Source: Deltaproteobacteria bacterium (GTDB taxonomy: Bacteria > Myxococcota > XYA12-FULL-58-9 > JAFGEK01). From it: a DNA stretch of 64,000 nt. Location: the NCBI GenBank assembly GCA_016931625.1, contig JAFGEK010000159.1, forward strand, positions 566 through 64,565. The letters are read 5' to 3'. The notes beneath the pieces are model-generated. The model worked only from the letters and a program-made list of their open reading frames with translations, ran no database searches and was not told where the DNA came from. This document shows, piece by piece, positions 1-27,834 of the stretch. Position numbers and translations under genes: made by a program. Each line of letters begins with the position of its first letter. Within the stretch, counting starts at the first letter, position 1.

Positions 1-1
1 T

Positions 2-847
2 AATACTCATGTTGAGCGCGAAACACGCAGTCGTTATCAGTCACAACATTACAAAAATGCAATGAATGAGCCAACAACCACGAAACGTGGACAAGCTCAG
101 GGGCCTGAAACAATAAAAGATGCCAAAGCTATTGAAATTAATCTTAACGCGCAAAACACTAATAAAACAAACACAACCAATGACACTCCTGCGCCTGCAG
201 TGGAGATCCCCAAAATTACCCCTCGCGATCGTTTAGCCCTCAAACTTAACTCAGAATTTGGCAAAATCCACAATCGTGATTCAATTTCTGCATCTGAGGG
301 TAATAGTGACAGACTCAAACTCTCGCTAGATCAAGGAAGTAATCAAAAAAATTCTAATAATTCAGAAGTTGCCCTTCAAAAGGGAAAAAAATCTATCGAA
401 TTAGTTCCACAAATAGGAGTGTTGGCTAGCCTTTCGGGGGCTCCCGCAAATGATCACCTTGAAGGTGTAGATTTGGGCGAAGGTACTTTTTTAAACTCGC
501 GTGCCTTTAAATATGCTTCATTTTTTAATCGAATTAAACGCGATGTCAGCAACAATTGGCGACCTATGCAAGAGTATCAGCGCCGTGATCCCACTGGTAA
601 CATATATGGCTTTCGTTCTCGTGAAACAGTTTTAAATATTACGTTAAAAGCAGATGGTACGCTGAAAGATACAAAGATTTTACAATCTAGCGGTCTTGAT
701 TTTCTTGATCGTGAAGCAATTTATGCATTCAAACGCGCTGGGCCATTTCCAAATCCACCTAAGGGTTTAATTCAAAATAATGACGAGATTTCTTTTCCAT
801 TTGGTTTTTATATAGATTTTAGCGGTCGTTCACGATCCCCATTTTAA
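2..847 (+). CDS. TonB C-terminal domain protein, 5' end probably truncated by the window edge
   Basis: The frame is open from position 2, so the real start is likely upstream of the window. The C-terminal region resembles the TonB_C fold (LNITLKADGTLKDTKIL..SGLDFLDREAIYAFKRAGPFPNPP). No N-terminal TM segment lies inside the window. Confidence 0.45.
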   Translation, partial: NTHVERETRSRYQSQHYKNAMNEPTTTKRGQAQGPETIKDAKAIEINLNAQNTNKTNTTNDTPAPAVEIPKITPRDRLALKLNSEFGKIHNRDSISASEGNSDRLKLSLDQGSNQKNSNNSEVALQKGKKSIELVPQIGVLASLSGAPANDHLEGVDLGEGTFLNSRAFKYASFFNRIKRDVSNNWRPMQEYQRRDPTGNIYGFRSRETVLNITLKADGTLKDTKILQSSGLDFLDREAIYAFKRAGPFPNPPKGLIQNNDEISFPFGFYIDFSGRSRSPF

Positions 848-914
848 ATATATTTCCTTGATATCATTATACAAAATAAAAAATAGCTTAGCAAATATAA
901 ATATATTGATAATA

Positions 915-2180
915 TTATTGCTGTTTAGCTAATTCGGGCACATAAACCCTTACCAGAATCGCATAAATTAAGAGTATTATGGAACATAAGGCTATAGTTA
1001 TAGGTACGCCTATATGCGTGGCTAAAGCACCAACCACTAAACCACCAATGGGCATCATACCAAAAAAACTTAACGTATAAATACTCAAAACCCGACCACG
1101 TAGTTCATCAGCAACATTCATTTGAATTACTGTATTAGTCATATTCATAAAAATCATTACTGACCAACCGGTTAGCAATAGAAATATTAAAGAGATACTA
1201 AGAATATGCGCTGCAGAAAATACCAATTGTGCTATCGGCAGGATAAAAATTACCATGCTTAGATGGCGACCCCGATGCACTTGTCTGCCATATGCAGCAA
1301 TCATTAATGCGCCTATTAAAGACCCTAAACCACGAGCGGTTAACAACCAGCCATTTGTGCGAGCATCGCCATGTAAGACTTCAGTAGCCCAGGCGGGCAT
1401 TAAAGTAATTATGGCAAAACCAAAAAAACTTATCGCCATAATGCCTAAAATTAGCGTACGTATCACACGATGCCGCCATACGAATAATAGACCAAGAATA
1501 ATTTCGCGGCGGGCCGAAGCTGTAGATATAATTTTTATTTTTGATGATAAACGCATGATTGCCAAAGCTACTAACACCGCCACAAACGACAGGCCATTAA
1601 TGAAAAAGCACCAAGCCGGCCCGAACCAAACGTAAAGCATCCCTGCAATACTTGGCCCTACAGTAGTCCCTATATTAAATATAGTGGAGTTTAATGCAAT
1701 AGCATTACCAAGATCAACGCGGGGCACAAGTTCTGCAACAAAAGCATGTCGCGCTGGGGCATCAAAAGAATTTGCAATACCAAGGCAAAAAGCTAATACT
1801 AAAATATGCCAAGGTTGTACAATTTCGCAGTAAGTTAATGCTGCTAAGATAAAAGCAAGCAACATCATAATTGATTGCGTGGTAAGCAAAAGCAGGCGTT
1901 GTGGTATGCGGTCGGCTACTACCCCACCATAAAGATTGAAAAACCAAGCTGGTACGCCGGCAACAAAGGCGACGTAACCAAGATATGCCGGAGAACGTGT
2001 AAGTTGATAAATTAAAAAGCCTTGGGCGGTAATTTGCATAAAGGTGCCAAGTATAGAAATTACTTGGCCGATAAACCAATAGCGGTAGTTTTTGTGGTAA
2101 AGAGCGGCAAAGGTTGTGCGTAGACTTTGGATGAGTGGCTTAGTCAAAACTCCAAAAGCACACATATACTTTGTTTTCAT
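915..2180 (-). CDS. MFS family transporter
   Basis: 421 aa with about 12 predicted hydrophobic helices. It carries an MFS-like signature with a GxxxDRxxRR-like loop (GGVVADRIPQRLLLL). Confidence 0.65.
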   Translation of the reverse strand: MKTKYMCAFGVLTKPLIQSLRTTFAALYHKNYRYWFIGQVISILGTFMQITAQGFLIYQLTRSPAYLGYVAFVAGVPAWFFNLYGGVVADRIPQRLLLLTTQSIMMLLAFILAALTYCEIVQPWHILVLAFCLGIANSFDAPARHAFVAELVPRVDLGNAIALNSTIFNIGTTVGPSIAGMLYVWFGPAWCFFINGLSFVAVLVALAIMRLSSKIKIISTASARREIILGLLFVWRHRVIRTLILGIMAISFFGFAIITLMPAWATEVLHGDARTNGWLLTARGLGSLIGALMIAAYGRQVHRGRHLSMVIFILPIAQLVFSAAHILSISLIFLLLTGWSVMIFMNMTNTVIQMNVADELRGRVLSIYTLSFFGMMPIGGLVVGALATHIGVPITIALCSIILLIYAILVRVYVPELAKQQ

Positions 2181-2240
2181 GATTTTACTTTTATTTGCAT
2201 AATTTAAACCTTATATCATAAAGATTGCATTTTGTTTATA

Positions 2241-2270
2241 GGGCTAGTGATTTATGGGCTAGTGATTTAG
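2241..2270. repeat. Tandem direct repeat GGGCTAGTGATTTA x2 about 130 bp upstream of the ECF sigma gene
   Basis: Two adjacent near-identical 14-15 bp units are directly visible in the sequence. Confidence 0.5.
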
Positions 2271-2393
2271 ATCACAAAAAAATAAAATCCTCAGGTATTA
2301 TAAGATAATACGAGGTGACACATTTTACTCGAGGCGGTGTTTCATAAGTAGTACACATATGGGACCCACGCTTTGATCTGTGGAGGCTAATGC

Positions 2394-2885
2394 TTGGGCA
2401 TTGATATAAAAAGCTTCTATGAGCGTTATGGCCCCATGGTATTAAGACGCTGCCGCCGATTGCTCGGTGACGACGAGAAAGCGTGGGATGCCATGCAAGA
2501 TGTATTTGTACAACTGCTGCGCTCGCAAAATCGACTACATGATACCGCACCTTCGAGCTTGTTATTTCGGATGGCGACTAATATTTGTCTTAATCGTTTA
2601 CGTTCACAATCTCGCTGTCGCGAAAATCAAAACGATGACATCATTGATGCAATTGCCCAAGCATCAACTGAATCTCAGTCACAAGCACGACTTATGCTTA
2701 CAAGAATATTTAATTCACAACGTGATGATACTAACACCGCAACCATGGCAATAATGCATTGGGTTGATGGTATGACTTATGAAGAAGTTGCTGGTGAAAC
2801 CGGTTTATCGGTATCTGGGGTACGCAAACGCTTACGAGTGCTGCGCGAAAAATTGCTAAGTAAAAATATTGAGGTGACGCCATGA
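2394..2885 (+). CDS. ECF (sigma-70 family) RNA polymerase sigma factor
   Basis: Start codon is TTG, with a GGAGG Shine-Dalgarno 7 nt upstream. The sigma region 2 motif is present (YERYGPMVLRRCRRLLGDDEKAWDAMQDVFVQLL), and the region 4 helix-turn-helix is present (MTYEEVAGETGLSVSGVRKRLRVLREKL). Confidence 0.8.
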   Translation: MGIDIKSFYERYGPMVLRRCRRLLGDDEKAWDAMQDVFVQLLRSQNRLHDTAPSSLLFRMATNICLNRLRSQSRCRENQNDDIIDAIAQASTESQSQARLMLTRIFNSQRDDTNTATMAIMHWVDGMTYEEVAGETGLSVSGVRKRLRVLREKLLSKNIEVTP

Positions 2886-3685
2886 ATAACACGCATATAC
2901 GTGATTGGGAGATTGAACGTTATCTGCTGGGTGAATTAAATAATGAGCGTCAAGAATATATACATAATTTGTTAGCTACAGATTGCGAGCTACAAAAACG
3001 TCTTGCAGATATAGAAGCTGATAATGTCGCTGTGCTAGCTAAACACCCTGGCACTACTTTTGCCGCTGCTATTAACAATCGCCTGCAACAAAAATCTGAA
3101 TATTTGCCCAAAACCAAACGTTCAAATTTATCGAAATTGTTATTTTTAGCGCCGGCGCTTGCTGGTGCTGCTGTTATACTTTTTGTTTGGCAACCAATGA
3201 ATACTGATGAAGTAATAATTCATAATAATACGGTAACTAAGGTTGACCCGGGTAATCGCGTTAAAGGTGCACCACATTTAATTATTCACCGTCAAGAAAA
3301 TAACGAGCAATTTGAATTGATTAATGGTGATACCGCTAAAGCTGGGGATTTATTGCAACTTGCTTACGTTCCGAGCGATAGTACTTATGGTATGATCATA
3401 TCTATGGATGGTTCTGGCAATGTAACTTTGCATTTCCCAGAAAATTCTACTGGTAATACCGCTTTAACCAAAGGTGGAGCAGCCTTACCGCACTCTTATG
3501 AACTTGATGATGCCCCTCTTTTTGAAAGATTTATTTTTATTACTGCTAAACATCCGATACCTGTTGGAGCAATACTAGCACGTGCTCATGCTTTAGCCCG
3601 CAACCCCCAAAAAGCAAGTTCTGCTTCGTTAGAGCTTACTAAAGAATTCAACGAAACATCCTTGCTAATTAGGAAGCTGCCATGA
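2882..3685 (+). CDS. Membrane-spanning anti-sigma factor
   Basis: The start overlaps the sigma stop (ATGA). It has a short cytoplasmic N-terminal domain and a single TM segment (LLFLAPALAGAAVILFVW). The C-terminal domain is about 150 aa and predicted extracytoplasmic. Its position immediately after the ECF sigma gene fits an anti-sigma role. Confidence 0.55.
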   Translation: MNNTHIRDWEIERYLLGELNNERQEYIHNLLATDCELQKRLADIEADNVAVLAKHPGTTFAAAINNRLQQKSEYLPKTKRSNLSKLLFLAPALAGAAVILFVWQPMNTDEVIIHNNTVTKVDPGNRVKGAPHLIIHRQENNEQFELINGDTAKAGDLLQLAYVPSDSTYGMIISMDGSGNVTLHFPENSTGNTALTKGGAALPHSYELDDAPLFERFIFITAKHPIPVGAILARAHALARNPQKASSASLELTKEFNETSLLIRKLP

Positions 3686-5991
3686 AAACTTTTGCAGCTA
3701 TCCTAATAAATATAGTCATTGTTCTTTTAGTTAGCCCGAATATTAATGCTAACGAACTTCCTCAGGGATTACGACGCTTTGCTCTGATAGTTGGGGTTAA
3801 TGATGGCGGCCCCGAAAGATCTTTACTGCGTTATGCTGCTAGCGATGCGAAAACGATAGCACGCGTTCTTAATGAACTTGGTGGCATTACTGAAAAAGAT
3901 ACTACTATCTTGTTAGATATAGATAATGAAACGCTGATAAATACTCTTGAGCAATATGTTTCATATATTAAATCTGCACAACTCCCATCTCAACGTATCG
4001 AATTAGTTTTTTATTATTCAGGTCATTCCGATGACCAGGGTTTATTACTGAAAGGCAAACGTGTCGGCTATCGCGAACTTAGACAAGCGCTTAATAAAAT
4101 ACCTGCTGATGTAAGAGTAGCAATAGTAGATTCATGTTCTTCAGGTGCGTTAACTAGGCGTAAAGGTGGTGTTCATCGACCTCCGTTTTTAATAGATGGA
4201 ACTACTAGCGTCCGTGGTCATGCTATTTTAACTTCAAGCTCAGAACATGAAGCTGCCCAAGAATCTGACCGTATACGTGCCTCATACTTCACTCATTATC
4301 TTATTTCTGGTTTACGCGGTGCTGCCGACACTACTGCCGACGGTCGCGTAACTCTCAACGAAGCTTATCAATTCGCCTTTGCTGAAACATTGCATCAAAC
4401 TGAAAAAACCCAAGCCGGCGCTCAACACCCTGCATACGATATTCAACTGCAAGGCTCGGGTGATTTGGTAATGACCGACTTGCGCACAACAAATGCCAGT
4501 CTTAGTATGGCTGCTGAGTTACATGGAAGATTTTATATTCATGATAACAGTCAGCATTTAGCTGCGGAACTTTATAAACCAATCGGCAGAGTGGTTGAAC
4601 TTGGTCTTGAACCTGGAAAATATTCTGTACGTCTTACTCAACGTGATGCCCTCTATGAAGCAGAGGTCGAATTGCAAGATGGCAAACATTTGCTTTTAAA
4701 AAATAATGATCTAAAAAAAGTATCATATGAATTAACCGCCATGCGCGGAAAGAACAACGACATTAACGATTTTGCAGCACCAGAATTTGCCATGCCCGCA
4801 GAAAAAAACAAAAATGTAAGTATCGATTCTTTCCCGCGTGTTAATACAAGTTTTTCTTTGATACCAACGATTAGCACCACAGAAACCATGGTGACTAAAA
4901 GATTATCTTTGAGTTTGGCAATGAGCGAAAGTGCCTACATTGACGGTGCCGATATTGGCGCCGGTTTTAATCATGTTTTATATGACCTACGCGGTCTGCA
5001 AGCTGGATTAGTTAATAAAGTAGATGGTGCGGCAGTAGGCGCACAAGTATCTTATGGTGTTAACTTAGTTAATAAACAAATGTTCGGCCTACAGGGAGCT
5101 GCAGCCTTTAATAGCAGCAATGGTGGCTCCTTTGCTCAAATCGCTGGTGGTGGCAATAGTACAACTGCCGCCAGCCGAGGATTACAAACTGCTGGTGTTT
5201 TTAATATCGCCAACTCAAGTTTTAAAGGCGCACAAATCAGTGGTGGCTTTAATGTTGTCAAAGAAGACTTTACGGGAGCGCAGATCACCGGTATTTTAAA
5301 TCAATCTAGTGCTTATATGACTGGCGTGCAAATTGGGTTAATTAATTTAGGGGGTACAAAACTTACTGGTAGCCAAATTGGGTTAATTAATATTAGTGAT
5401 GACCTTAGTGGCGGTCAAATTGGTTTAGTTAATATTGGCGATAAGGTTAATGGCACGCAGATTGGCTTGGTAAATGTATCGGATAATGCTGATGCGCCAA
5501 TTGGTTTTATTAATTATGTAAAAGATGTTCCATTGCACTTTGAATTTTGGGGTTCTTCTGATGAACCAACGATGTTTGCGTTACGCTATGGTGGCAAATA
5601 TATTTATGCCATGTTTGTTACTGGCATCATGCGGCGCAATTTACCACGTATGACCAATGAAGATTGGTCAATAGGTTTTGGTATTGGCGGACATATCCCA
5701 ATTCAACAAGCCTTTATTGATATTGATATTATGGGTACAAGCCCTGCAAGCAAATTTGGCCATCCTGATGATCATACAACTTTGGGGCATCTGCGTTTAA
5801 CTGTAGGTTGGCAAATTATGCCGCGTTTAGCGTTATTTGCCGGTCCAATGGCAAATGTATCTATTATAGCAGATGATAAAAGTTTAAATTTGCCAGTTAG
5901 AGATCGTTTTCGCTCGTTAGAGAAAGTATGGCATTCTGGCGATACTACGGTGCGTTTATGGCCTGGATTTGTAATTGGGGTGAGAATTTAA
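3682..5991 (+). CDS. Exported caspase-like (peptidase C14) domain protein with C-terminal tandem G-x-Q-I-G-L-V-N repeats
   Basis: The start overlaps the anti-sigma stop (ATGA). A signal peptide is present. The caspase His/Cys dyad context is present (YYSGHSDDQG and VAIVDSCSSGA). About 8 repeats of roughly 20 aa each (GAQISGGFNVV, GVQIGLINLG, GSQIGLINIS, GGQIGLVNIG, GTQIGLVNVS) span about nt 4990-5520. Confidence 0.65.
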   Translation: MKTFAAILINIVIVLLVSPNINANELPQGLRRFALIVGVNDGGPERSLLRYAASDAKTIARVLNELGGITEKDTTILLDIDNETLINTLEQYVSYIKSAQLPSQRIELVFYYSGHSDDQGLLLKGKRVGYRELRQALNKIPADVRVAIVDSCSSGALTRRKGGVHRPPFLIDGTTSVRGHAILTSSSEHEAAQESDRIRASYFTHYLISGLRGAADTTADGRVTLNEAYQFAFAETLHQTEKTQAGAQHPAYDIQLQGSGDLVMTDLRTTNASLSMAAELHGRFYIHDNSQHLAAELYKPIGRVVELGLEPGKYSVRLTQRDALYEAEVELQDGKHLLLKNNDLKKVSYELTAMRGKNNDINDFAAPEFAMPAEKNKNVSIDSFPRVNTSFSLIPTISTTETMVTKRLSLSLAMSESAYIDGADIGAGFNHVLYDLRGLQAGLVNKVDGAAVGAQVSYGVNLVNKQMFGLQGAAAFNSSNGGSFAQIAGGGNSTTAASRGLQTAGVFNIANSSFKGAQISGGFNVVKEDFTGAQITGILNQSSAYMTGVQIGLINLGGTKLTGSQIGLINISDDLSGGQIGLVNIGDKVNGTQIGLVNVSDNADAPIGFINYVKDVPLHFEFWGSSDEPTMFALRYGGKYIYAMFVTGIMRRNLPRMTNEDWSIGFGIGGHIPIQQAFIDIDIMGTSPASKFGHPDDHTTLGHLRLTVGWQIMPRLALFAGPMANVSIIADDKSLNLPVRDRFRSLEKVWHSGDTTVRLWPGFVIGVRI

Positions 5992-6015
5992 TATAATTTA
6001 ATCCTTGGTGAGATT

Positions 6016-6324
6016 TTAATAAAGAAACACACCTTGGCTATCGATATGAACTTGCATGTATTTATTTAATCGCTGGTAATCTAAAATATCAACGCAACGA
6101 ACTAGTTCTGATTCTTCAAGCAAATCTTCAAATTCAGCAAGTAAATTTAACGGAACTTTATTGGTAGCTTTAATCGCCAGATCGATATCTGAATTTTCTC
6201 GCCCTTGGTTTTTGGCCAATGAACCAAATAATATTAATTTTGCACCTGGAAGTTTTGCAGCAATACTCTTCCAAGCATCGTTAACAATATTTAGTTCTTT
6301 ACTGCTTAGACCAATATTACTCAT
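6016..6324 (-). CDS. Nucleotidyltransferase (MntA/HI0073-like antitoxin-type minimal nucleotidyltransferase)
   Basis: Carries the GS-x9-SDIDL motif (LFGSLAKNQGRENSDIDLAI). It overlaps its partner gene by 4 nt. Confidence 0.7.
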   Translation of the reverse strand: MSNIGLSSKELNIVNDAWKSIAAKLPGAKLILFGSLAKNQGRENSDIDLAIKATNKVPLNLLAEFEDLLEESELVRCVDILDYQRLNKYMQVHIDSQGVFLY

Positions 6325-6710
6325 TTTAAATTTAGCTCAAAATCGTCTTGTAACTTAATGATAAGTTTTTTCACAAAATACGGGAAACGCACAGCTTCTT
6401 GATAAACTTCATCAGCGGTATCTTCATTATAAGTATGTGATGTAAGATTACGACTTGCTAAGAATCTCATCCAGGTGGCAACATCATCGATATACCCAGC
6501 TTTATGAGCTGCACGAAATGCCTGTTTTGCACTGCCGGTATCCACTCCACCTAGTTTTAATGCTCTTTGCATAATTTTCCAAGCTAACTCAAACGTATAT
6601 TCAAATCGCTGAATAACCCCATCACGAATATAGGGCGACAATGGCTGATTGAGAATATCTTCTAAACTAGTCAGTGCTTTTTTTAGCGCTGTTAAATCAA
6701 GGTCGTTCAT
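6321..6710 (-). CDS. Nucleotidyltransferase substrate-binding protein (HI0074 family, HepT-like toxin-type)
   Basis: Has the HI0074-type four-helix signature (IRDGVIQRFEYTFELAWKIMQRAL). It is co-oriented with, and overlaps, the nucleotidyltransferase gene. Confidence 0.65.
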   Translation of the reverse strand: MNDLDLTALKKALTSLEDILNQPLSPYIRDGVIQRFEYTFELAWKIMQRALKLGGVDTGSAKQAFRAAHKAGYIDDVATWMRFLASRNLTSHTYNEDTADEVYQEAVRFPYFVKKLIIKLQDDFELNLK

Positions 6711-6761
6711 AGTTATTTTGATAGCCTAGAACAAAACATACTACAAGATATCATACATAAA

Positions 6762-7907
6762 TTAAAATAATGAAAGCTGTTGAGCTGCCCGACACCCATC
6801 AAACAATAAATATGGCGCAGCAATTTTATAAGAAGCACCAACTGCTGCTAATGCTTGAGTATCACGTAGTTTTGTGGTCGCACGTAACTTAAGTAAGCGG
6901 GTTACAGATTTTGGACCAATACCAGGGACACGCAACAATTCGTGACGTTGTGCAGTATTTATTTCTAGCGGAAAAAGCTCAGGGTGTTGTTTGGCCCATA
7001 AGGTTTTAGGATCGGTAGTAAGTGAAAGTGCACCACTATCATTAAAAGGTATTTCATCAACCTTAAACCCATAACAACGCAGCATAAAATCTACTTGGTA
7101 TAATCTATGTTCACGCATAAATGGCACAGGTTGCGCAATAATATTATCGACACCGGCTAGTGGCTGTAAGGCTGAATAATAAACGCGAGATAATTTTAAA
7201 TCGTCATAAAGATTTGCAACACGCAAGGCAATATCTTGATCGCTTTCACCCGCCGCACCAACAACTAACTGAGTTGTTTGACCAGACCGCGCAAAGCGAC
7301 CGGCTTTCTCAGCTTTTGCTACTTGTTGCATTATTGCCAGGATTTGGGCGTGATGTTTACCTGGAGCAATTTTTTTTAATTGCGCTTCGTTAGGTGTTTC
7401 AAGATTTACTGAAACGCGTGTCGCATAACGCATGGCATATTCAACCTGAGCACTATCACAACCTGGGATAAGCTTAAGATGCATATAACCCCGATACTTA
7501 TAACGACTACGTAAAATTTCGGCGGTGGCAAGTAAATTATCCATAGTTGCAACCGCACCTTTATGAATTGCCGATGATAGAAACAAACCAAATACTTGGC
7601 GAGCTTGGTAAAGCTGCATGAATATTTGTGCCAACTCATCTGGAGCTAGTTTTTCTTGGTACCCCCTGCCCCCGAGACGTTCACTGCAATAGTTACAGGC
7701 GCACTCGCATCCTTTAGCTTGCAACACTTTTAACATTGCGGTGCGTTCACCATTAGGCAAGGCTGCTGGATAAATCCATAAACCATCACTACCACGTTTA
7801 CGTGAGTTAGAAGGACCGCAAGCACATGATAAGTCGTAACGTGCTGCCTCGGTAAGCGAGGCTAAGCGCTGCTCAACTGATGGTAGCACACGGATTGATG
7901 GAGGCAT
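6762..7907 (-). CDS. Putative DNA modification/repair radical SAM protein with C-terminal helix-hairpin-helix
   Basis: Contains a CxxxCxxC cluster (CECACNYC). The C-terminal helix-hairpin-helix motif is LLRVPGIGPKSVTRLL. The architecture matches the radical-SAM/HhH family usually paired with a UDG-like partner. Confidence 0.6.
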   Translation of the reverse strand: MPPSIRVLPSVEQRLASLTEAARYDLSCACGPSNSRKRGSDGLWIYPAALPNGERTAMLKVLQAKGCECACNYCSERLGGRGYQEKLAPDELAQIFMQLYQARQVFGLFLSSAIHKGAVATMDNLLATAEILRSRYKYRGYMHLKLIPGCDSAQVEYAMRYATRVSVNLETPNEAQLKKIAPGKHHAQILAIMQQVAKAEKAGRFARSGQTTQLVVGAAGESDQDIALRVANLYDDLKLSRVYYSALQPLAGVDNIIAQPVPFMREHRLYQVDFMLRCYGFKVDEIPFNDSGALSLTTDPKTLWAKQHPELFPLEINTAQRHELLRVPGIGPKSVTRLLKLRATTKLRDTQALAAVGASYKIAAPYLLFDGCRAAQQLSLF

Positions 7908-7961
7908 GTTGTGACTATACTGTACGGTTGTTCAGGTTGCAAGAGTGCTTTTTAAAAATAA

Positions 7962-8579
7962 CTACGCACTAACCCCTGCCATTATAAAGGCTTCTTGTAG
8001 TTCATTATAATCTTGGGTCACTGGAAACTGCGGAAATTCACCAGTTATATTTGCGGGCGGGCGAAAAAAAATGCCAGCATCGGCGCTAAGCATCATCGAA
8101 GTATCATTATATGAATCACCAGCAGCAATCACATAGAAATTTAGCTCTTTAAAAGCTCTAACTGCAGCACGTTTTTGATCGGCAAGACGCAAATTGTAAC
8201 CAGATATTTTATTGTTAGCATCAATTTCAAGGCTGTGGCAAAAAAGCGTTGGATAACTCAGCTGCTTCATTAATGGCGCGGCAAATTGAGCAAAAGTGTC
8301 AGACAAAATAACTACCTGACAGCGCTCTCGTAGCCAATTAAGAAATTTTAACGCGCCATCTAAAGGCTTCATGGTGGCAATAACATTTTGAATGTCACGC
8401 AACTTGAGGTCATGCTTAGCTAAAATGTTAAGGCGATATTGCATTAACACATTATAATCAGGTTCATCGCGCGTGGTGCGACGAAGTTCGGCAATGCCTG
8501 TGCATTCAGCTACATTTATCCAAATCTCGGGAACTAAAACACCTTCTAAGTCTAAGCAGGCTATTACTTGACGGTTCAT
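7962..8579 (-). CDS. thrH: Phosphoserine phosphatase / homoserine phosphotransferase ThrH (HAD family)
   Basis: Similarity is strong along the whole length to Pseudomonas ThrH as recalled from memory (IACLDLEGVLVPEIWI ... VVILSDTF ... AAGDSYNDT). The first motif matches the HAD DxD signature. Confidence 0.75.
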   Translation of the reverse strand: MNRQVIACLDLEGVLVPEIWINVAECTGIAELRRTTRDEPDYNVLMQYRLNILAKHDLKLRDIQNVIATMKPLDGALKFLNWLRERCQVVILSDTFAQFAAPLMKQLSYPTLFCHSLEIDANNKISGYNLRLADQKRAAVRAFKELNFYVIAAGDSYNDTSMMLSADAGIFFRPPANITGEFPQFPVTQDYNELQEAFIMAGVSA

Positions 8580-8746
8580 AATAAAATACTCCTAACGACA
8601 AATACTTAGATGATAATCAATTAATATGATTGTTTAATAAATTAACGTACAGCAAGAATAACATATACTTATTCTAGCAAAACTCGCTAGTATGATAATT
8701 GCTAATTGTCATATAACCAAACCACAAAAACTATTAAAATTATATG

Positions 8747-8762
8747 CATTTAGGGACACCCC
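8747..8762 (+). repeat. Copy 1 of the dispersed 17-nt motif CATTTAGGGACACCCC
   Basis: Matches exactly the motifs at 19671, at 43467, and in inverted form at 43301. It lies in the divergent intergenic region between thrH and the PAP2 gene. Confidence 0.6.
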
Positions 8763-8787
8763 TTATATTAAGATTGGTAAGTTAACA

Positions 8788-9570
8788 ATGATACTAACAT
8801 CATTAACTATATGCTATTTTTCGCTTGGCTTAACAAATTTACCTAGTACGTCAAATTCAACATTAATAGATAATCAAGCCGATCCATTTACAGTTTCGCT
8901 TTTAATTGATGCACCGTTAATAGGTGGTAGCGCCGCTTTGTTTGCTAGTACTTTATTACTAAATAATTATGGCAATAAAAAGAAAAAGACCGATAGAACA
9001 AAAATACTTTTGCCATTTGATAAAATTGCGCTCAATCGTAATAATAAAAGTCATGATATTGCTTCGACTTATTTACAAAACGCTATGATCATAAGTGCTC
9101 CGCTTGCTATTGGCATGTGGCAATGGGACTTAAAATTTAAAAGTTTAGTTCCAGCGTTTATAATAACTGAATCGCTAATTGTAAGCTCTGCCATCTGCCA
9201 TTTTACTAAATCAATGGTGAGACGCCCACGCCCTTATTCATACACGCGTAGTTTTGCTTCTGGTGAAGCAAGTCGCTCATTTTATTCTGCTCACACTACA
9301 GTGGCTTTTGCTGCAGTTACATCAACGACAAGTGTGCTTTACCATTTGCAATCACCATATACCTGGCCGGTGCTTTATGCTGGTATCCCGTTAGCAGCTA
9401 CGGTTGGTATTTTGCGAGTTAGTAGTGGCAAACATTTTCCGAGTGATGTAATAGTTGGGGCGCTTGCCGGGGCATCAATAGGCATATTAGTCCCTTATCT
9501 ACATCGAAGTAATCGTTCGCTATCATTAATATTTTCACCATCGGGACTAGCTGTCGCTGGTAATTTCTGA
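8788..9570 (+). CDS. PAP2 family phosphatase (membrane)
   Basis: The PAP2 motifs are present: KSMVRRPRP (KX6RP), YSAHT (SxH), and SSGKHFPSDVIVG (SRX5HX3D-like). Several TM helices are predicted. The start was chosen at the Met preceding the first TM segment; the ORF track extends it to 8692. Confidence 0.6.
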   Translation: MILTSLTICYFSLGLTNLPSTSNSTLIDNQADPFTVSLLIDAPLIGGSAALFASTLLLNNYGNKKKKTDRTKILLPFDKIALNRNNKSHDIASTYLQNAMIISAPLAIGMWQWDLKFKSLVPAFIITESLIVSSAICHFTKSMVRRPRPYSYTRSFASGEASRSFYSAHTTVAFAAVTSTTSVLYHLQSPYTWPVLYAGIPLAATVGILRVSSGKHFPSDVIVGALAGASIGILVPYLHRSNRSLSLIFSPSGLAVAGNF

Positions 9571-9583
9571 CAATTGTTGAGCC

Positions 9584-10189
9584 ATGCATAACAACACTGG
9601 ATTTCTAATTGCTTTAGAAGGTATTGATGGCTCTGGCACCACTACGCAAGCGCGGCTACTAGGCGAATATTTAAAGTTAAGACGAAAAGTTGTTTGTACT
9701 GTTGAACCATCAAAAGGTCCAATAGGTATACTTATTCGTCAAGCATTAGTTGATAATAAAAAACTTAGCGATGAATCGCTGGCTTTGTTATTTGCTGCTG
9801 ATCGCCTAGATCATATTGAACGCGAAATAGAACCGGCGCTAAAAGAGGGAAACATTGTCATCACTGATCGCTATTTACTTTCTTCGCTAGCATACCAGTC
9901 GAGTTACTTGCCTATAGACTGGGTATTATCAATAAACTCTCGCGCACGAAAACCCGACGCTTCAATTTTATTGCGTGTAAGTGCCGAAACAGCAGCAAGA
10001 CGTCGCGAAACACGTGGCGGTCATAAAGAACGCTTTGATGATATTGAGCGCCAAGGTCAAATCGCGCAAGCTTATGAACAAACTTTAAAGCTTGCAAACG
10101 TTGGCTTAACGTATGCTATCAATGCTGAGAATGATGTTGAAACTGTGCACAACGAATTAAAACAATTGCTAGATAAAATTTTGCCATAA
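9584..10189 (+). CDS. tmk: Thymidylate kinase
   Basis: Has the P-loop (LEGIDGSGTTTQ), the DRY motif (TDRYLLSSLAYQ), and a LID arginine cluster (RRRETRG). Confidence 0.85.
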   Translation: MHNNTGFLIALEGIDGSGTTTQARLLGEYLKLRRKVVCTVEPSKGPIGILIRQALVDNKKLSDESLALLFAADRLDHIEREIEPALKEGNIVITDRYLLSSLAYQSSYLPIDWVLSINSRARKPDASILLRVSAETAARRRETRGGHKERFDDIERQGQIAQAYEQTLKLANVGLTYAINAENDVETVHNELKQLLDKILP

Positions 10190-10503
10190 ATTATCAATTT
10201 GCAGGTTGGACTTTTTTACTTCGACATATAAAACCACACATAAAACTACATATGGCAAATATGTCAGAGAACAACATTATATTAATAACACATAAAATAA
10301 CTATATTATAAATAGCTTTGCGACTAATATGTCATAGTGTATTAATCATTTTTTAGGTTGATAAGAATTATCATTACAACTTTGCTGTAATTATTAAGAC
10401 TTTGTTTTGAATATTATTGGCATATGATATGCTAATATATTACAGCGCAAAGAAATCAACCAAAAAAATCGTTTACCTTTTTGCTAGTGCAGGAGAGGCG
10501 AGC

Positions 10504-12009
10504 ATGAATCAGAAATTATTGAGTATATGCATCATTTCCACATTAACTTTTACTGCATGTAAAAAAGATGATGTCAAAGTTGACGATGTCAATACTCGCA
10601 GTTCAGCTATAGTTAAAAATACGATAACCACTACTACCAGTGCGCTTAACGCGCTTCAAAACGAGCAAACTATTAAAAGTCTTGAACAAGCTTTTGAACA
10701 ATTAAATGAAATCTTTGGTGGTTCAACATCAAATATTCAATCACCTCTTTCTTCTAGTTTAAAAACTTTGCAAGCTAAGGCTACATTAGCATCAAAACGT
10801 CTTAAAAATATAAAATCAAGCTCTTCGGCTTTAGATGAAGTAAGCTCTGTAGATACCGAAGAAGACATTGCTGCTGATATTAATGATTTTTTACAACAAT
10901 ACATATTTACTGATGATAATCTTGAATCAAGTGATGAAAATAGCGCTACTTTGTTAATCAAAGGCACTAGCATATGTGAGACTGAAGATAGTGAATGTAT
11001 CTCATCATTTACTGAAGCGCAAATTCGCATTAAAGCTACATTAACTGATAATGATGGAGTTAATTTTGATTTAATGATTGGTTCGTCACGTACTAATCCT
11101 ATTAGCATAGAAGCCACACCAAAAAGCATTGCCGTACAGCTTGATTTAGCTGCTTTTAAAAATGCCTATCAACAAATAGCGGCTATTACTGGTGATGATG
11201 TCTCTGATATGCCTGAAGTTTTGCAAGGCATATTGCGAGCTAAATTAGTGATTAATGGTGAACAAGATATTTCACTTACTGGCTCAATTATTAAGGCTTT
11301 GCAATTAAAAACTAATGAAACAGAAGGTGCAACAGGTTTAAGTCTCGCTGCTGCAGATCCATTAATTGCTATGGATCTACAAGGTCTCACTAGTACTATG
11401 GAAATAGCTCTCAATGCCGGCAGTGGTAGTTTTTACGCTCCATATTCTTCACTTGATGAAGAATCGACTATTACTGATTCTTTTAGTATCAATTTTGCTG
11501 GTGCAAGTTTTAATGTTTCACTGCAACCTGAGACTGATTTAGTTATTACCAATGTTAGCATTGGCAAAGGACCATTAACCCTAACCCTTGGGGCAAAGAC
11601 TCTATTGTCGCTATTGCTAAATCCGTCTTCTGATTATACTTTTGATGTTGCAATTAAAGCTACTGAAGCAAACGATGCTGTATTAACTTTTACCCCTGAA
11701 TTAAATGTGATTTTGGACTATGATTTTGTTAATACTCCTTTTGAAGACCCCTATGCAGAAGTAGCAATGGCTGAAACCTATGAAATTGATATTTCAGGTA
11801 ATGGCAGCGCCACCATACAATCAGTCCCAGAGGACGCCACTGGGTTTGATGGGGGGATAAAAGTAGTTAGTGGTACTTTAAATTTATCGGCAGCATCAGA
11901 TCAAAGTTCAGTTCAAGTTTCGCAAGGTCAATGTCTTGTATCAGTTGACTCTGAGCCAGAGGCTGGCGCACCATTAACCGCCTATGTTCAAGCAGCAAGC
12001 TGCTTTTAA
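10504..12009 (+). CDS. Hypothetical secreted lipoprotein
   Basis: An AGGAGA Shine-Dalgarno precedes the start. A lipoprotein signal with lipobox is present (LSICIISTLTFTAC). No domain was recognised in the remainder. The ORF track gives a longer N-terminus (10417). Confidence 0.45.
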   Translation: MNQKLLSICIISTLTFTACKKDDVKVDDVNTRSSAIVKNTITTTTSALNALQNEQTIKSLEQAFEQLNEIFGGSTSNIQSPLSSSLKTLQAKATLASKRLKNIKSSSSALDEVSSVDTEEDIAADINDFLQQYIFTDDNLESSDENSATLLIKGTSICETEDSECISSFTEAQIRIKATLTDNDGVNFDLMIGSSRTNPISIEATPKSIAVQLDLAAFKNAYQQIAAITGDDVSDMPEVLQGILRAKLVINGEQDISLTGSIIKALQLKTNETEGATGLSLAAADPLIAMDLQGLTSTMEIALNAGSGSFYAPYSSLDEESTITDSFSINFAGASFNVSLQPETDLVITNVSIGKGPLTLTLGAKTLLSLLLNPSSDYTFDVAIKATEANDAVLTFTPELNVILDYDFVNTPFEDPYAEVAMAETYEIDISGNGSATIQSVPEDATGFDGGIKVVSGTLNLSAASDQSSVQVSQGQCLVSVDSEPEAGAPLTAYVQAASCF

Positions 12010-25203: not shown

Positions 25204-25409
25204 CCAGAAGCAATAACTACTTCTTGCACAGCTTCAGCATGCAAACGCGGTATAGTCTCATCACCGCCAGCGGCCATACGACTTGTGCGTGCCAATACTT
25301 TAGATTGTTTTAAGTCTATCAATTCTTAACTTACTGTTTTTATTTAGATAAAAAATCTATTTAATTAATCGTTTGACAGCAAGTAAGGCTCTACATTATG
25401 GCCTTTTTT

Positions 25410-25612
25410 CGTAACCGGTGCCTACCATACGAAAGTGTGAGGCATAATAGGGAACCTGGTGAAAATCCAGGACTGCCCCGCAGCGGTAAGTGAAAACGAA
25501 GTCCACACATAGCACTGGCTAATTATGCTGGGAAGCTGTGGGCAATAGGAAGACGACAACAACTAATTGTGTGTCGTTAAGCTCACAAGCCCGAAGACCT
25601 GCCGGTACCTGA
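25410..25612 (+). ncRNA. Cobalamin (B12) riboswitch in the nrdD leader
   Basis: The conserved core is GGTGCC..AATAGGGAA..GGTGAAAATCC..ACTGCCCCGCAGCGGTAAG (25417-25492). The B12 box is AGCCCGAAGACCTGCC (25588-25603). A GCCTC-GCGG-GAGGC hairpin precedes the RBS. Confidence 0.8.
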
Positions 25613-25677
25613 TCTCAGAGAGAAAACTGAGACTGTCTATTAACCTTACGGCCTCGCGGGAGGCAAAAGGAGTAGCA

Positions 25678-27834
25678 ATGTCAAACATTGCATCACTTGC
25701 GCATGAAATTTCATCAACTGTTGTTATTACTAATAACCCTTCGAATATTACTCCTCTGTTTTCAACTATTATCAAACGTGACGGAACACGTGAGCCTTTT
25801 GCTGCTGCACGCATTGCAAAAGCTATAGAACTTGCTGGCAAAGCTACCCATGAATATGATGCGCAAGAAGCACAACGACTTGCTCGCCGTGTGTTAGTTA
25901 TTGCGGCTGCTACAACTCAAAATGAGCCGACGGTTGAGGGGATTCAAGATTTAGTTGAAGACGTGCTCATGGCCTCACCTTTTCGTAAAGCTGCACGTGC
26001 ATATATTCTATATCGCGAACAACATCGGATATTACGTGAAATACATAGCAAACAAAACACTAAACTGGTTGACTCATATCTTGATAAATCTGATTGGCAA
26101 ATATCTGAAAATGCCAACATGGCTTTTAGCTTACAGGGACTAAATAACCATATTGCTAGTGAAGTTATTCGTAAGTATTGGCTTGAACAACTATACCCAC
26201 CGGTTGTACGCAATGCTCATGAATCGGGTGACTTTCATATTCATGATTTAAATTTATTGGCTGTCTATTGTGTTGGTTGGGACTTAAGCGATTTATTGCT
26301 GCAAGGTTTTTGTGGCGCAGATGGTAAAGTCGAAAGTAAACCAGCACGTCATTTTCGCACCGCGCTCGGACAAATAGCTAACTTTTTTTATACCCTTCAG
26401 GGGGAAGCAGCTGGCGCGCAAGCCTTTTCAAGTGTAGACACCTTGTTGGCTCCCTTTATCGCATACGATAAGCTTTCTTATAAAAATGTAAAGCAAGCGA
26501 TACAAGAATGGGTTTTTAACCTAAACGTTGCCACTCGCGTTGGTTTTCAAACACCTTTTACTAACATAACCCTTGATTTCAATGTACCGACAAAACTTCA
26601 CGATCAACCAGTAATTATCGGTGGCAAATTACAAAAAGCAACATATGGTAACTTTCAAAATGAAGTCGATATGTTCAACCGTGCTTTTCTTGAAGTCATG
26701 ATCGAAGGTGATGCTAAAGGGCGTGTTTTTACTTTTCCAATTCCTACTTATAACATTACTAAAGATTTTAATTATGATGATCCTCGTCTTTCGCTTTTAT
26801 GGGAAGCAACTGCACGTTATGGCATCCCCTATTTTGCCAATTTTGTAAATTCGCAAATGTCTCCTGATGATGCGCGCAGTATGTGTTGTCGTTTGCGGCT
26901 TGATACTCGTGAGCTGCAACATCGCGGTGGCGGATTGTTTGGTGCTAATCCGCTTACTGGTTCTATTGGGGTAGTTACGCTTAATCTACCACGCCTGGGA
27001 CACTTTGCTCATGATGAAGATGATTTTAAAATTCGTTTAAGTGCGCTTATGGATATTGCTCGTGATAGCCTTATACTAAAACGTAAAATTTTAGAACGTT
27101 TTACCGAAGCTGGGCTATATCCATATGCCCGCCATTATCTGCAAAGTATAAAAACACGTTTTAACTCATTTTGGCATAATCACTTTGCAACGATTGGTAT
27201 TATCGGTCTTGAAGAAGCTACGCAAAACCTGCTCGGTGAAAGTTTATTGTCAGAAAGTGGGCGCGCTTTCGGTTTACGTATGCTTGATTTTCTGCGCGCG
27301 AAATTAATTTCTTTTCAAGAAGAGACCAATACACCATTTAATTTAGAGGCTACTCCAGCAGAGGGCGCAAGTTATCGTTTGACCAATCTTGACCGCAAGC
27401 ATTATCCTGATATGCAGATTTTTACTCAAGATAATGATATCGTTTATGCAAATTCATCGCAACCACCTATTGATGCTTTCAATGACCCCTTTGAACTGCT
27501 TGAACAACAAGATGAATTTCAAGTACAATATACTGGTGGTACTGTGCTGCATTTTTATCTTGGCGAACGTGTTGAGGATTCTGCCACAGTTAAAAACTTT
27601 GTCCGTAAAGTTTGCGCAAACTTTCATTTGCCTTATTTTACTTTAACCCCAACTTTTTCTATTTGTCCTGAACATGCTTATCTTGCAGGCGAGCATCAAG
27701 TATGTCCGCATTGCGGCGCACCAACTGAAGTATATTCGCGTGTCGTTGGTTACCTAAGACCTGTACAACAGTGGAATCCTGGCAAACAAAAAGAGTTCTC
27801 GCGGCGCGGCCTATTTGATCAAAATCTTAGGTAA
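25678..27834 (+). CDS. nrdD: Anaerobic ribonucleoside-triphosphate reductase (class III)
   Basis: An AAAGGAG Shine-Dalgarno lies 7 nt upstream. An ATP-cone is present (IIKRDGTREPF). The C-terminal Zn ribbon (CPEHAYLAGEHQVCPHCG) and the glycyl-radical motif (SRVVGYLRP) are present. The ORF track starts earlier, at 25567 inside the riboswitch. Confidence 0.85.
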   Translation: MSNIASLAHEISSTVVITNNPSNITPLFSTIIKRDGTREPFAAARIAKAIELAGKATHEYDAQEAQRLARRVLVIAAATTQNEPTVEGIQDLVEDVLMASPFRKAARAYILYREQHRILREIHSKQNTKLVDSYLDKSDWQISENANMAFSLQGLNNHIASEVIRKYWLEQLYPPVVRNAHESGDFHIHDLNLLAVYCVGWDLSDLLLQGFCGADGKVESKPARHFRTALGQIANFFYTLQGEAAGAQAFSSVDTLLAPFIAYDKLSYKNVKQAIQEWVFNLNVATRVGFQTPFTNITLDFNVPTKLHDQPVIIGGKLQKATYGNFQNEVDMFNRAFLEVMIEGDAKGRVFTFPIPTYNITKDFNYDDPRLSLLWEATARYGIPYFANFVNSQMSPDDARSMCCRLRLDTRELQHRGGGLFGANPLTGSIGVVTLNLPRLGHFAHDEDDFKIRLSALMDIARDSLILKRKILERFTEAGLYPYARHYLQSIKTRFNSFWHNHFATIGIIGLEEATQNLLGESLLSESGRAFGLRMLDFLRAKLISFQEETNTPFNLEATPAEGASYRLTNLDRKHYPDMQIFTQDNDIVYANSSQPPIDAFNDPFELLEQQDEFQVQYTGGTVLHFYLGERVEDSATVKNFVRKVCANFHLPYFTLTPTFSICPEHAYLAGEHQVCPHCGAPTEVYSRVVGYLRPVQQWNPGKQKEFSRRGLFDQNLR

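Follow-up and report, generated by a model that had tools for sequence, protein, structure and literature searches.

The window analysed here is a 64,000-nucleotide stretch of contig JAFGEK010000159.1 from a bacterium of the phylum Myxococcota, and all coordinates count from its first letter. The list of open reading frames (ORFs) and the raw sequence place three genes on the same strand at 2394–2885, 2882–3685, and 3682–5991 (+). The first encodes a 163-residue-long sigma factor of the extracytoplasmic function (ECF) type, the second a 267-residue-long single-pass anti-sigma-like protein of the ActD family, and the third a 769-residue-long exported protease of the metacaspase/orthocaspase-like family C14, referred to below as the protease or, at the level of genes, as the caspase. 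The three-gene locus, or triad, is a real operon and is translationally coupled. Stop and start codons overlap in the sequence ATGA both between the sigma factor and anti-sigma genes (2882–2885, +) and between the anti-sigma and caspase genes (3682–3685, +), where the original prediction had placed the overlaps. Of the related loci, 34 of 50 have a four-base-pair overlap at the sigma/anti-sigma junction, and 59 of 70 have one at the anti-sigma/caspase junction. The triad is a conserved unit with a promoter that is specific to the family.

Conservation of the triad and its promoter

Full-length homologues of the protease, with sequence identities of 38–51%, are common in Myxococcota. At least 581 relatives turned up when species-representative genomes were scanned, the majority in Myxococcota and some in metagenome-assembled genomes (MAGs) labelled Spirochaetota, Fibrobacterota-like, Fermentibacteria, or Eiseniibacteriota. 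Gene neighbourhoods were compared in 77 caspase-seeded loci with enough upstream DNA, which were drawn from the best 80 of the scan and from individually fetched loci. The sigma factor, anti-sigma, and caspase genes stand together in 53 of the 77 loci; 13 contain the anti-sigma and caspase genes without an adjacent sigma factor gene, and ten contain the caspase gene alone. The one other locus, L064, is a frameshifted triad. Its single ORF spanning the anti-sigma and caspase genes (4158–7367) was considered as a natural fusion and rejected, because the frame turns rich in arginine and proline after about residue 185, and an insertion–deletion error in the long MAG contig is most likely. Loci seeded with the sigma factor contain the triad in five of five cases, including a MAG labelled Gemmatimonadetes, and loci seeded with the anti-sigma protein in two of three, the third (L094) having the order caspase–ExbB–ExbD–ExbD–TonB–ActD-like. 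The genes flanking the triad differ from locus to locus. The survey of gene neighbourhoods thus recovers the triad from each of its three members in differing surroundings, and the lack of conservation that the original prediction had named as an argument against a functional module is not what was found.

In a neighbour-joining tree of the proteases, the arrangement linked to a sigma factor gene is widespread and deep. The pairs from the act-type operons described below, those of the Archangium type, and the stand-alone paralogues are nested within a clade of Myxococcaceae and Archangiaceae. The copy in the window branches deeply within a large family that has yet to be characterised. Genes of TonB systems occur in the vicinity of several members, at 1–4783 in L094, at 8299–10474 in L086, L087, and L089, and at 1049–3943 in L041; the window has a gene for a TonB_C protein at 62–847, two genes upstream of the triad. 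Oar-like TonB-dependent transporters with CarboxypepD_reg and Plug domains, some of them with an N-terminal TonB_C domain, are encoded in 14 of 95 loci, among them seven loci of stand-alone paralogues from Myxococcaceae (all except L058).

A putative autoregulatory promoter precedes the sigma factor gene at 2314–2341 (+) and was recognised by the conservation of its motif. It consists of GGTGACA (2314–2320), a 15-nucleotide spacer, and GGTGTT (2336–2341), and looks like the −35 and −10 pair of an ECF-type promoter. The motif ends 52 nucleotides before the TTG start codon and is the sole exact match to GGTGACA-N15-GGTGTT within the window. In a dyad search, 43 of the 49 distinct regions upstream of the sigma factor genes of related loci proved to share GGT(G/A)ACA-N15-GGTGTT with the same spacing, at a median distance of 55 nucleotides from the start codon. 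There are 92 matches to the motif in 1.92 Mb of loci, compared with three in a reversed-sequence control. Autoregulation is well supported, because the motif is kept across genomes of widely differing guanine–cytosine (GC) content, which is about 40% in the window. A search of the window for further regulon members gave two matches with one mismatch, at 53169 and 61271, which is no more than chance predicts.

The original prediction had drawn attention to a 14-base-pair tandem repeat in the putative promoter region. The repeat is real, and its unit GGGCTAGTGATTTA occurs at 2241–2254 and 2256–2269 (+), about 45 nucleotides upstream of the −35 element; however, one spacer base separates the copies, giving a period of 15, so that they are not strictly tandem, and the conserved promoter is instead the motif at 2314–2341. 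The repeat is not conserved upstream of the sigma factor genes in the three closest relatives, and its unit recurs nowhere else in the window. It was therefore rejected as a regulatory element in favour of GGTGACA-N15-GGTGTT, and is probably not part of the conserved module.

Five loci have extra copies of the promoter motif just past the stop codon of the caspase gene, at 7089 in L042, 7251 in L057, 7434 and 9670 in L061, 7049 in L066, and 7067 in L083. These copies precede genes for small exported proteins, such as a 197-residue-long protein in L066 (7101–7694) that resembles outer-membrane proteins and ends in AGVSF, and an aspartate-rich repeat protein of 208 residues in L042 (7111–7737). 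The small exported proteins are likely further members of the regulon, which would therefore include envelope proteins.

The second and third genes of the triad have counterparts in the act operon of Myxococcus. NCBI calls several homologues of the 267-residue-long protein ActD protein or ActD-like, and two ActD proteins (P0177 and P0199) and one ActD-like protein (P0180) share 35–37% of their residues with it over 97–99% of the length (E values of 1e-34 to 1e-36). In nine loci of the Myxococcus group (Myxococcaceae), the ActD-like gene and the gene for a full-length homologue of the protease follow homologues of a sigma-54 activator and of a protein with Rossmann and GNAT domains; the ActD-like and caspase genes of M. 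eversor (L008) share four base pairs. In M. xanthus, the upstream sigma-54 activator is actB (MXAN_3214; PMC8570273) and the Rossmann–GNAT gene is MXAN_3215 (PMC8556138). According to Kaiser (PMC3824092), the act operon comprises five genes that are transcribed together and govern the positive feedback of the C-signal; the operon actABCDE goes back to Gronewold and Kaiser (2001, 2002), as cited in PMC3824092 and PMC4320627. Because of this synteny and the phrase about five co-transcribed genes, the fifth act gene, actE, is taken here to encode the caspase homologue.

The act operon differs from the locus in the window, where an ECF sigma factor gene takes the place of actABC; the window contains no ActB-like or ActC-like genes, and the gene upstream of the ActD homologue is that of the ECF sigma factor. 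According to the neighbour-joining tree, the act-type pair of actD and caspase genes is a derived clade nested among the triads linked to sigma factor genes. The promoter motif, in the form GT(G/A)AC-N17-GTGTT, nevertheless lies about 50–100 nucleotides (up to 180 in L021) upstream of the ActD-like gene in loci without an adjacent sigma factor gene, near coordinates 3950–4130 of L007–L009, L016, L017, L019, L021, L022, L024, and L027–L029. These comprise act operons of the Myxococcus type and loci from Archangium and Vitiosangium. An internal ECF-dependent promoter of the act operon and a sigma factor encoded elsewhere are therefore predicted. In the parts of the literature covered by the searches, ActD is known only from phenotypes in developmental timing, and neither an anti-sigma function of ActD nor the relationship of the fifth act gene to caspases is described there. 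The present analysis assigns anti-sigma-like and caspase-like identities to these two proteins, and the operon that times the C-signal would hold a predicted internal promoter of the ECF type.

Architecture of the three proteins

The sigma factor gene (2394–2885, +) starts with TTG, which is preceded at a distance of seven nucleotides by the Shine–Dalgarno sequence GGAGG (2382–2386, +) and aligns with the start codons of the closest relatives. The protein scores above the cut-offs of Sigma70_r2 (50.2 bits against 24, E = 2.3e-13), Sigma70_r4_2 (26.1 against 25.7, E = 6.9e-6), and the ECF model TIGR02937 (64.7 against 42.9), which bears out the ECF sigma factor with a TTG start of the original prediction. 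Its 163 residues contain a sigma2 and a sigma4 domain only, and it belongs to the sigma-70 family as a member of group 4 (the ECF sigma factors), which is defined by these two domains alone and a length of about 160–200 residues. The co-transcribed anti-sigma gene and autoregulatory promoter that are expected of ECF sigma factors are seen at the level of sequence as the four-base-pair overlap and the conserved motif. Homologues of the sigma factor are 55–71% identical, and it is far better conserved than the anti-sigma protein and the protease. In the main text of the ECF classification paper (PMC7826278), caspases and the domain DUF4384 go unmentioned.

The anti-sigma-like protein (2882–3685, +) has an AlphaFold2 model with a predicted local distance difference test score (pLDDT) of 87. 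It begins with a cytoplasmic four-helix domain of residues 8–74 (about 2903–3103), followed by a transmembrane helix predicted at residues 90–103 inside the hydrophobic stretch 85–103 (3134–3190). The helix is preceded by K77, K79, R80, and K85, which predict that the N-terminus lies in the cytoplasm. A flexible linker at residues 105–125, modelled as disordered at residues 105–120, leads to the motif R126-V-K128-G129 (3257–3268) and to a β-sandwich of the DUF4384 type at residues 130–267 (3269–3682), which is modelled with very high confidence at residues 132–265. Together with matches to the NCBIfam model for anti-sigma factors in most of the family, this arrangement agrees with the single-pass anti-sigma factor with a periplasmic domain that had been claimed for the gene.

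On its own, the protein from the window matches the NCBIfam model NF052375 (anti-sigma factor) with E = 0.003 and 17.5 bits against an equivalog cut-off of 100, and DUF4384 (PF14326) with E = 0.013 and 16 bits against a gathering score of 27. The anti-sigma assignment is based on the evidence from the family rather than on these matches. Of 53 family members, 39 match NF052375 (best E value of 2.5e-10) and 36 match PRK13920 over the N-terminal 100 or so residues. DUF4384 is matched by 20 members at E ≤ 0.01 (best 7e-8) and by 38 at E ≤ 1, and four homologues carry a precomputed DUF4384 annotation. The family is large and uniform, with 2252 cluster representatives at 50% identity and E ≤ 1e-30, nearly all of them 255–300 residues long. 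The profile zf-HC2, named in the original prediction, does not match the 267-residue-long protein, and a profile search detected no other Pfam anti-sigma domain in it. The zinc motif HxxxCxxC is absent from its N-terminus, which has only H28 and C35, both of them unconserved in the family alignment. Therefore, if the protein is an anti-sigma factor, it is of the non-zinc type. A profile of the 53 homologues gave no meaningful match to solved anti-sigma structures among the PDB sequences, and Foldseek aligned the model only with generic immunoglobulin (Ig)-like sandwiches, all with E > 0.01.

The protease (3682–5991, +) was assigned by Pfam, NCBIfam, AlphaFold2, and Foldseek. Residues 1–23 (3682–3750) form a signal peptide of the Sec type, with an initial MK, a hydrophobic core, and a cleavage site between INA and NE. 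The caspase domain follows at residues 30–266 (3769–4479), and Peptidase_C14 (PF00656) matches residues 31–252 with 42 bits against a cut-off of 21.4. The catalytic dyad is formed by His115 (codon 4024–4026, +) and Cys152 (codon 4135–4137, +), which are invariant among 24 homologues and align with the motifs YSGHG and DSCHSG of Arabidopsis metacaspase 4 (AtMC4) and Candida metacaspase-1. Membership of family C14 with a conserved dyad, on which the original prediction depended, is thus upheld. In the AlphaFold2 model (pLDDT of 78), the N-terminal domain has a caspase–hemoglobinase fold and is most similar to metacaspases 4 and 9 (Foldseek E value of 1e-4), followed by legumain and caspases.

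The remainder of the protease consists of a modelled β-sandwich at residues 272–347 (4495–4722), a disordered linker, and a repeat array. The latter, a predicted β-helix at residues 386–650 or so (4837–5631), has at least about ten GxQ repeats of the LA_2272 type, which match NF047436 in three stretches with 75.9 bits against a cut-off of 25; GxQ recurs every 14–16 residues over positions 438–591. The signal peptide, the C14 domain, and the C-terminal repeat array of the original prediction are all present, and the models add that the array is probably a β-helix followed by a small barrel of the outer-membrane type. The putative barrel occupies residues 655–769 or so (5644–5988), with long strands predicted over residues 618–768. 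Its best Foldseek match is NspA (E = 1.3e-2, probability 1.0), followed by OmpA, the N-terminal domain of OprF, Ail, and OmpX with E values of 3e-2 to 1e-1. The protein ends in VIGVRI, without the canonical C-terminal phenylalanine. The barrel appears to sit in the outer membrane and to anchor the protease there. In small outer-membrane barrels such as OmpA and NspA, the two termini point into the periplasm, which is therefore the most likely location of the protease domain.

Both the protease and the anti-sigma-like protein contain the sequence R-x-K-G in a segment that is modelled with low confidence. Of 71 anti-sigma homologues, all have K-G and 64 have the complete R-x-K-G, located where the DUF4384 domain comes closest to the membrane. 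In the protease, the sequence R159-R-K-G-G163 (4156–4170) lies in a disordered loop that directly follows the catalytic cysteine, and R-x-K-G-G is found in 77 of 83 homologues. The p20-type fold, the motifs YSGH and DSCxSG, and a basic flexible loop after the cysteine are shared with orthocaspases and metacaspases (C14B-like peptidases) such as Microcystis MaOC1 and Arabidopsis MC4 and MC9. Unlike these enzymes, the protease described here is exported, fused to a β-sandwich, a β-helix, and a putative outer-membrane-type barrel, and coupled to a sigma factor and an anti-sigma protein. Orthocaspases cut after basic residues (PMC6426788), and the DSC motif together with this literature predicts that the protease is specific for arginine and lysine.

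Candidate roles of the protease

The original prediction had suggested either proteolysis that feeds back on the sigma factor or an exported effector under the control of the sigma factor, and both are hypotheses. It is tentatively proposed, with somewhat less than even confidence, that the protease cuts the anti-sigma protein between the lysine and the glycine of R-x-K-G and so acts as the site-1 protease of an autoregulated envelope-signalling module. The sigma factor would read GGT(G/A)ACA-N15-GGTGTT and drive expression of all three genes, and the ActD-like protein would hold it at the inner membrane. The protease domain, tethered to the outer membrane and located in the periplasm, could there meet the periplasmic domain of the anti-sigma protein; it would probably have matured through self-cleavage in the R-x-K-G-G loop that follows Cys152. 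Upon an envelope signal, the Arg/Lys-specific protease would cut the anti-sigma protein at the membrane-proximal edge of DUF4384. With this bulky domain removed by a cut at K128, the remaining stub of about 25 residues would be typical of the substrates of site-2 proteases of the RseP type, which would complete the degradation and release the sigma factor. The released sigma factor would lead to the production of more protease, resulting in positive feedback.

A direct relationship between the protease and the anti-sigma protein is suggested by the pairing of their genes, which is tighter than that of the sigma factor and anti-sigma genes and persists, together with the promoter, in loci without an adjacent sigma factor gene, such as the act loci of Myxococcus and those of Archangium. 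It is also suggested by the occurrence of DUF4384 elsewhere. Other bacteria have proteins that combine the domain with an orthocaspase p20 domain in one chain (PMC6426788, PMC7475262), and it forms the C-terminal domain of some Csx30 proteins, which are binding partners of the sigma factor RpoE and substrates of the caspase-like Csx29 (bioRxiv 10.1101/2022.08.17.504292). The sequence R-x-K-G is a candidate for the cleavage site, because it is conserved in flexible segments of both proteins and orthocaspases cut after basic residues.

Several points weigh against cleavage of the anti-sigma protein by its neighbour. The DUF4384 and anti-sigma matches of the protein from the window itself fall below the curated cut-offs. 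Constant co-expression of a protease with its substrate requires an extra control step. The likeness around R-x-K-G spans three residues only and could be structural. The placement of the protease in the periplasm depends on weak matches of the barrel (E values of about 1e-2) and on a general rule for how small barrels are oriented. The length of the β-helix varies widely between homologues, which speaks against its use as a ruler of fixed distance. Finally, ten of the 77 loci have caspase paralogues without an anti-sigma gene, and in two of them (L033 and L060) a promoter of the sigma type lies directly upstream of the caspase gene. These paralogues indicate that the protease has a role independent of this anti-sigma protein.

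The stand-alone paralogues and their promoters fit the possibility, which is on the unlikely side, that the protease is solely an output of the regulon. The sigma factor and the anti-sigma protein would then sense a signal through DUF4384 by another route, the anti-sigma protein would not be touched by the protease, and the protease might serve in quality control of envelope proteins, in processing of matrix or prey proteins, or in cell-fate decisions. Class III paralogues in other contexts, next to Oar-like TonB-dependent transporters, are consistent with such an output, as are the extra promoter copies in front of genes for small exported proteins in L042, L057, L061, L066, and L083, and ECF operons commonly include effector genes. 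However, a role as output leaves unexplained why the junction of the anti-sigma and caspase genes is tighter than that of the sigma factor and anti-sigma genes, why the two genes stay together in the absence of an adjacent sigma factor gene, and why DUF4384 recurs in fusion with caspase-type domains elsewhere.

It is less probable still that the two proteins are partners without proteolysis. The outer-membrane protein could relay a signal from the surface or the outer membrane to the periplasmic domain of the anti-sigma protein by contact, as FecA does to FecR, or DUF4384 could hold the protease inactive or in position, in which case it is the protease that would be controlled by the anti-sigma protein. 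The gene order of sigma factor, anti-sigma protein, and outer-membrane protein is that of fecI-fecR-fecA, TonB-system genes recur nearby (in L094, as Oar-like transporters in 14 of 95 loci, and as the TonB_C gene of the window), and the Ig-like sandwich of DUF4384 would suit the binding of proteins. The likeness to the cell-surface signalling system FecI/FecR/FecA is nevertheless one of gene order alone, since none of the three proteins contains a FecR, Plug, or TonB_dep_Rec domain. The 769-residue-long protein also lacks an N-terminal signalling domain, and the association with TonB-system genes is limited to a minority of class I loci. Furthermore, the invariance of the catalytic dyad implies that catalysis matters. 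That the genes are chance neighbours, or that the 267-residue-long protein is no anti-sigma factor, would agree with its sub-threshold matches and with the lack of a match to solved anti-sigma structures, but this is extremely improbable and effectively refuted by the recovery of the triad from any seed in dozens of loci with different flanks, by its four-base-pair overlaps and common promoter, and by family-level anti-sigma matches that reach 2.5e-10.

Proteolysis of anti-sigma factors is known from the systems RseA/DegS/RseP, RsiW/PrsW, and FecR/Prc. The proposed cleavage at R-x-K-G shares with such regulated intramembrane proteolysis an autoregulated ECF operon, a single-pass anti-sigma factor, and removal of the periplasmic domain at site 1 before cleavage at site 2. 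The site-1 proteases that we know of are serine proteases or metalloproteases and are usually encoded elsewhere. By contrast, the candidate described here is a caspase homologue that is encoded in the operon and probably anchored to the outer membrane.

One of the two closest parallels is provided by DdvS and DdvA of M. xanthus (PMC6061681, PMC11506125). These likewise pair an ECF sigma factor with an anti-sigma factor that crosses the membrane once, and their system also includes a protease module of clan CD (caspase fold) with a His/Cys dyad in the periplasm. The periplasmic CHAT caspase-like domain of DdvA has been proposed, as yet without proof, to be the protein's own site-1 protease, which cuts a linker next to the membrane before RseP acts (PMC11506125), and the same logic is proposed for the triad. 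The two systems differ in that DdvA unites the TPR-CHAT protease and the anti-sigma factor in one polypeptide, with cleavage that would take place in trans between the two subunits of a dimer, whereas the C14 protease of the triad is a separate protein that is probably anchored by its barrel. The periplasmic part of the anti-sigma protein is a DUF4384 sandwich in the triad and TPR-CHAT in DdvA. Furthermore, DdvA has a zinc-binding CHCC anti-sigma domain, unlike the 267-residue-long protein with its missing HxxxCxxC motif; its regulon is a CBASS/CRISPR defence island, whereas the triad has no defence genes around it; and proteins like DdvA are narrowly distributed, in contrast to the large family of ActD-like anti-sigma proteins. 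In the other of these parallels, the type III-E Craspase (Csx29 TPR-CHAT, PMC10028731), a protease with a caspase fold cuts the sigma-binding protein Csx30 and thereby changes the activity of the ECF sigma factor RpoE, and the C-terminal DUF4384 domain of one group of Csx30 proteins is of the same type as that of the anti-sigma protein described here. However, Craspase is cytoplasmic, RNA-guided, and encoded beside cas genes, whereas the triad is probably located in the envelope and has neither cas genes nor matches to PADLOC models. The parts of the triad belong to known families, namely ECF sigma factors, C14 peptidases, LA_2272 repeats, and DUF4384/ActD proteins, and it is their combination that appears to be new. 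The literature searched contains no description of an ECF sigma factor with a DUF4384 anti-sigma protein and a separate barrel-anchored C14 protease under a promoter of their own.

To our knowledge, bacterial caspase homologues are abundant, and almost none of them has a known substrate or physiological role. The module offers a candidate pair of protease and substrate, a C14 protease and a DUF4384 anti-sigma protein, with a predicted cleavage motif and a promoter as read-out. A more far-reaching claim, which must be regarded as distinctly doubtful, is that the outer-membrane caspase homologue is the dedicated site-1 protease, cutting between the lysine and the glycine of R-x-K-G, of a large unrecognised ECF family with about 2000 or more ActD-like clusters. 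In Myxococcus, actD and actE would be a copy derived from this switch, and the DUF4384/caspase pair would correspond in the envelope to Csx30 and Csx29, to which it might also be related. If this were true, caspase homologues would form a new class of site-1 proteases in ECF sigma signalling, the timing of C-signal-dependent multicellular development would depend in part on a caspase-like protease of bacteria, and the unproven role of the caspase-like domain of DdvA as a trigger of regulated intramembrane proteolysis would gain independent support.

Surroundings of the triad in the window

The triad is flanked in the window by genes for a transporter of the major facilitator superfamily, an MNT/HEPN-like pair, and a radical SAM protein, which are unrelated to it. 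The flanking genes are housekeeping or unrelated genes, with no defence or cas genes among them. A defence system was considered and rejected, because there are no PADLOC matches and the model for EACC1-type caspases scores 63 bits against a cut-off of 140. A genomic island was likewise ruled out by the GC content, which is even at about 0.37–0.43 over positions 1–12000. Promoters of the sigma-70 type and terminators occur within 2100–6400 at background level only.

The end of the caspase gene converges with two genes on the opposite strand (6016–6710, −) that resemble a toxin–antitoxin pair of the MNT/HEPN type. A nucleotidyltransferase gene (Polbeta/NTP_transf_2, 6016–6324, −) overlaps by four base pairs with a gene for a substrate-binding/HepT-like protein (6321–6710, −). 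Further downstream, at 10417–12009 (+), a 530-residue-long ORF has a lipoprotein-like N-terminus containing LTFTACKKDD and gave no Pfam match at E ≤ 0.001. A cobalamin riboswitch lies at 25399–25620 (+; Rfam RF00174, 110 bits, E = 1e-26), at the start of a 755-residue-long ORF (25567–27834), with which it overlaps by about 50 nucleotides when the ORF is counted from its first possible start codon.

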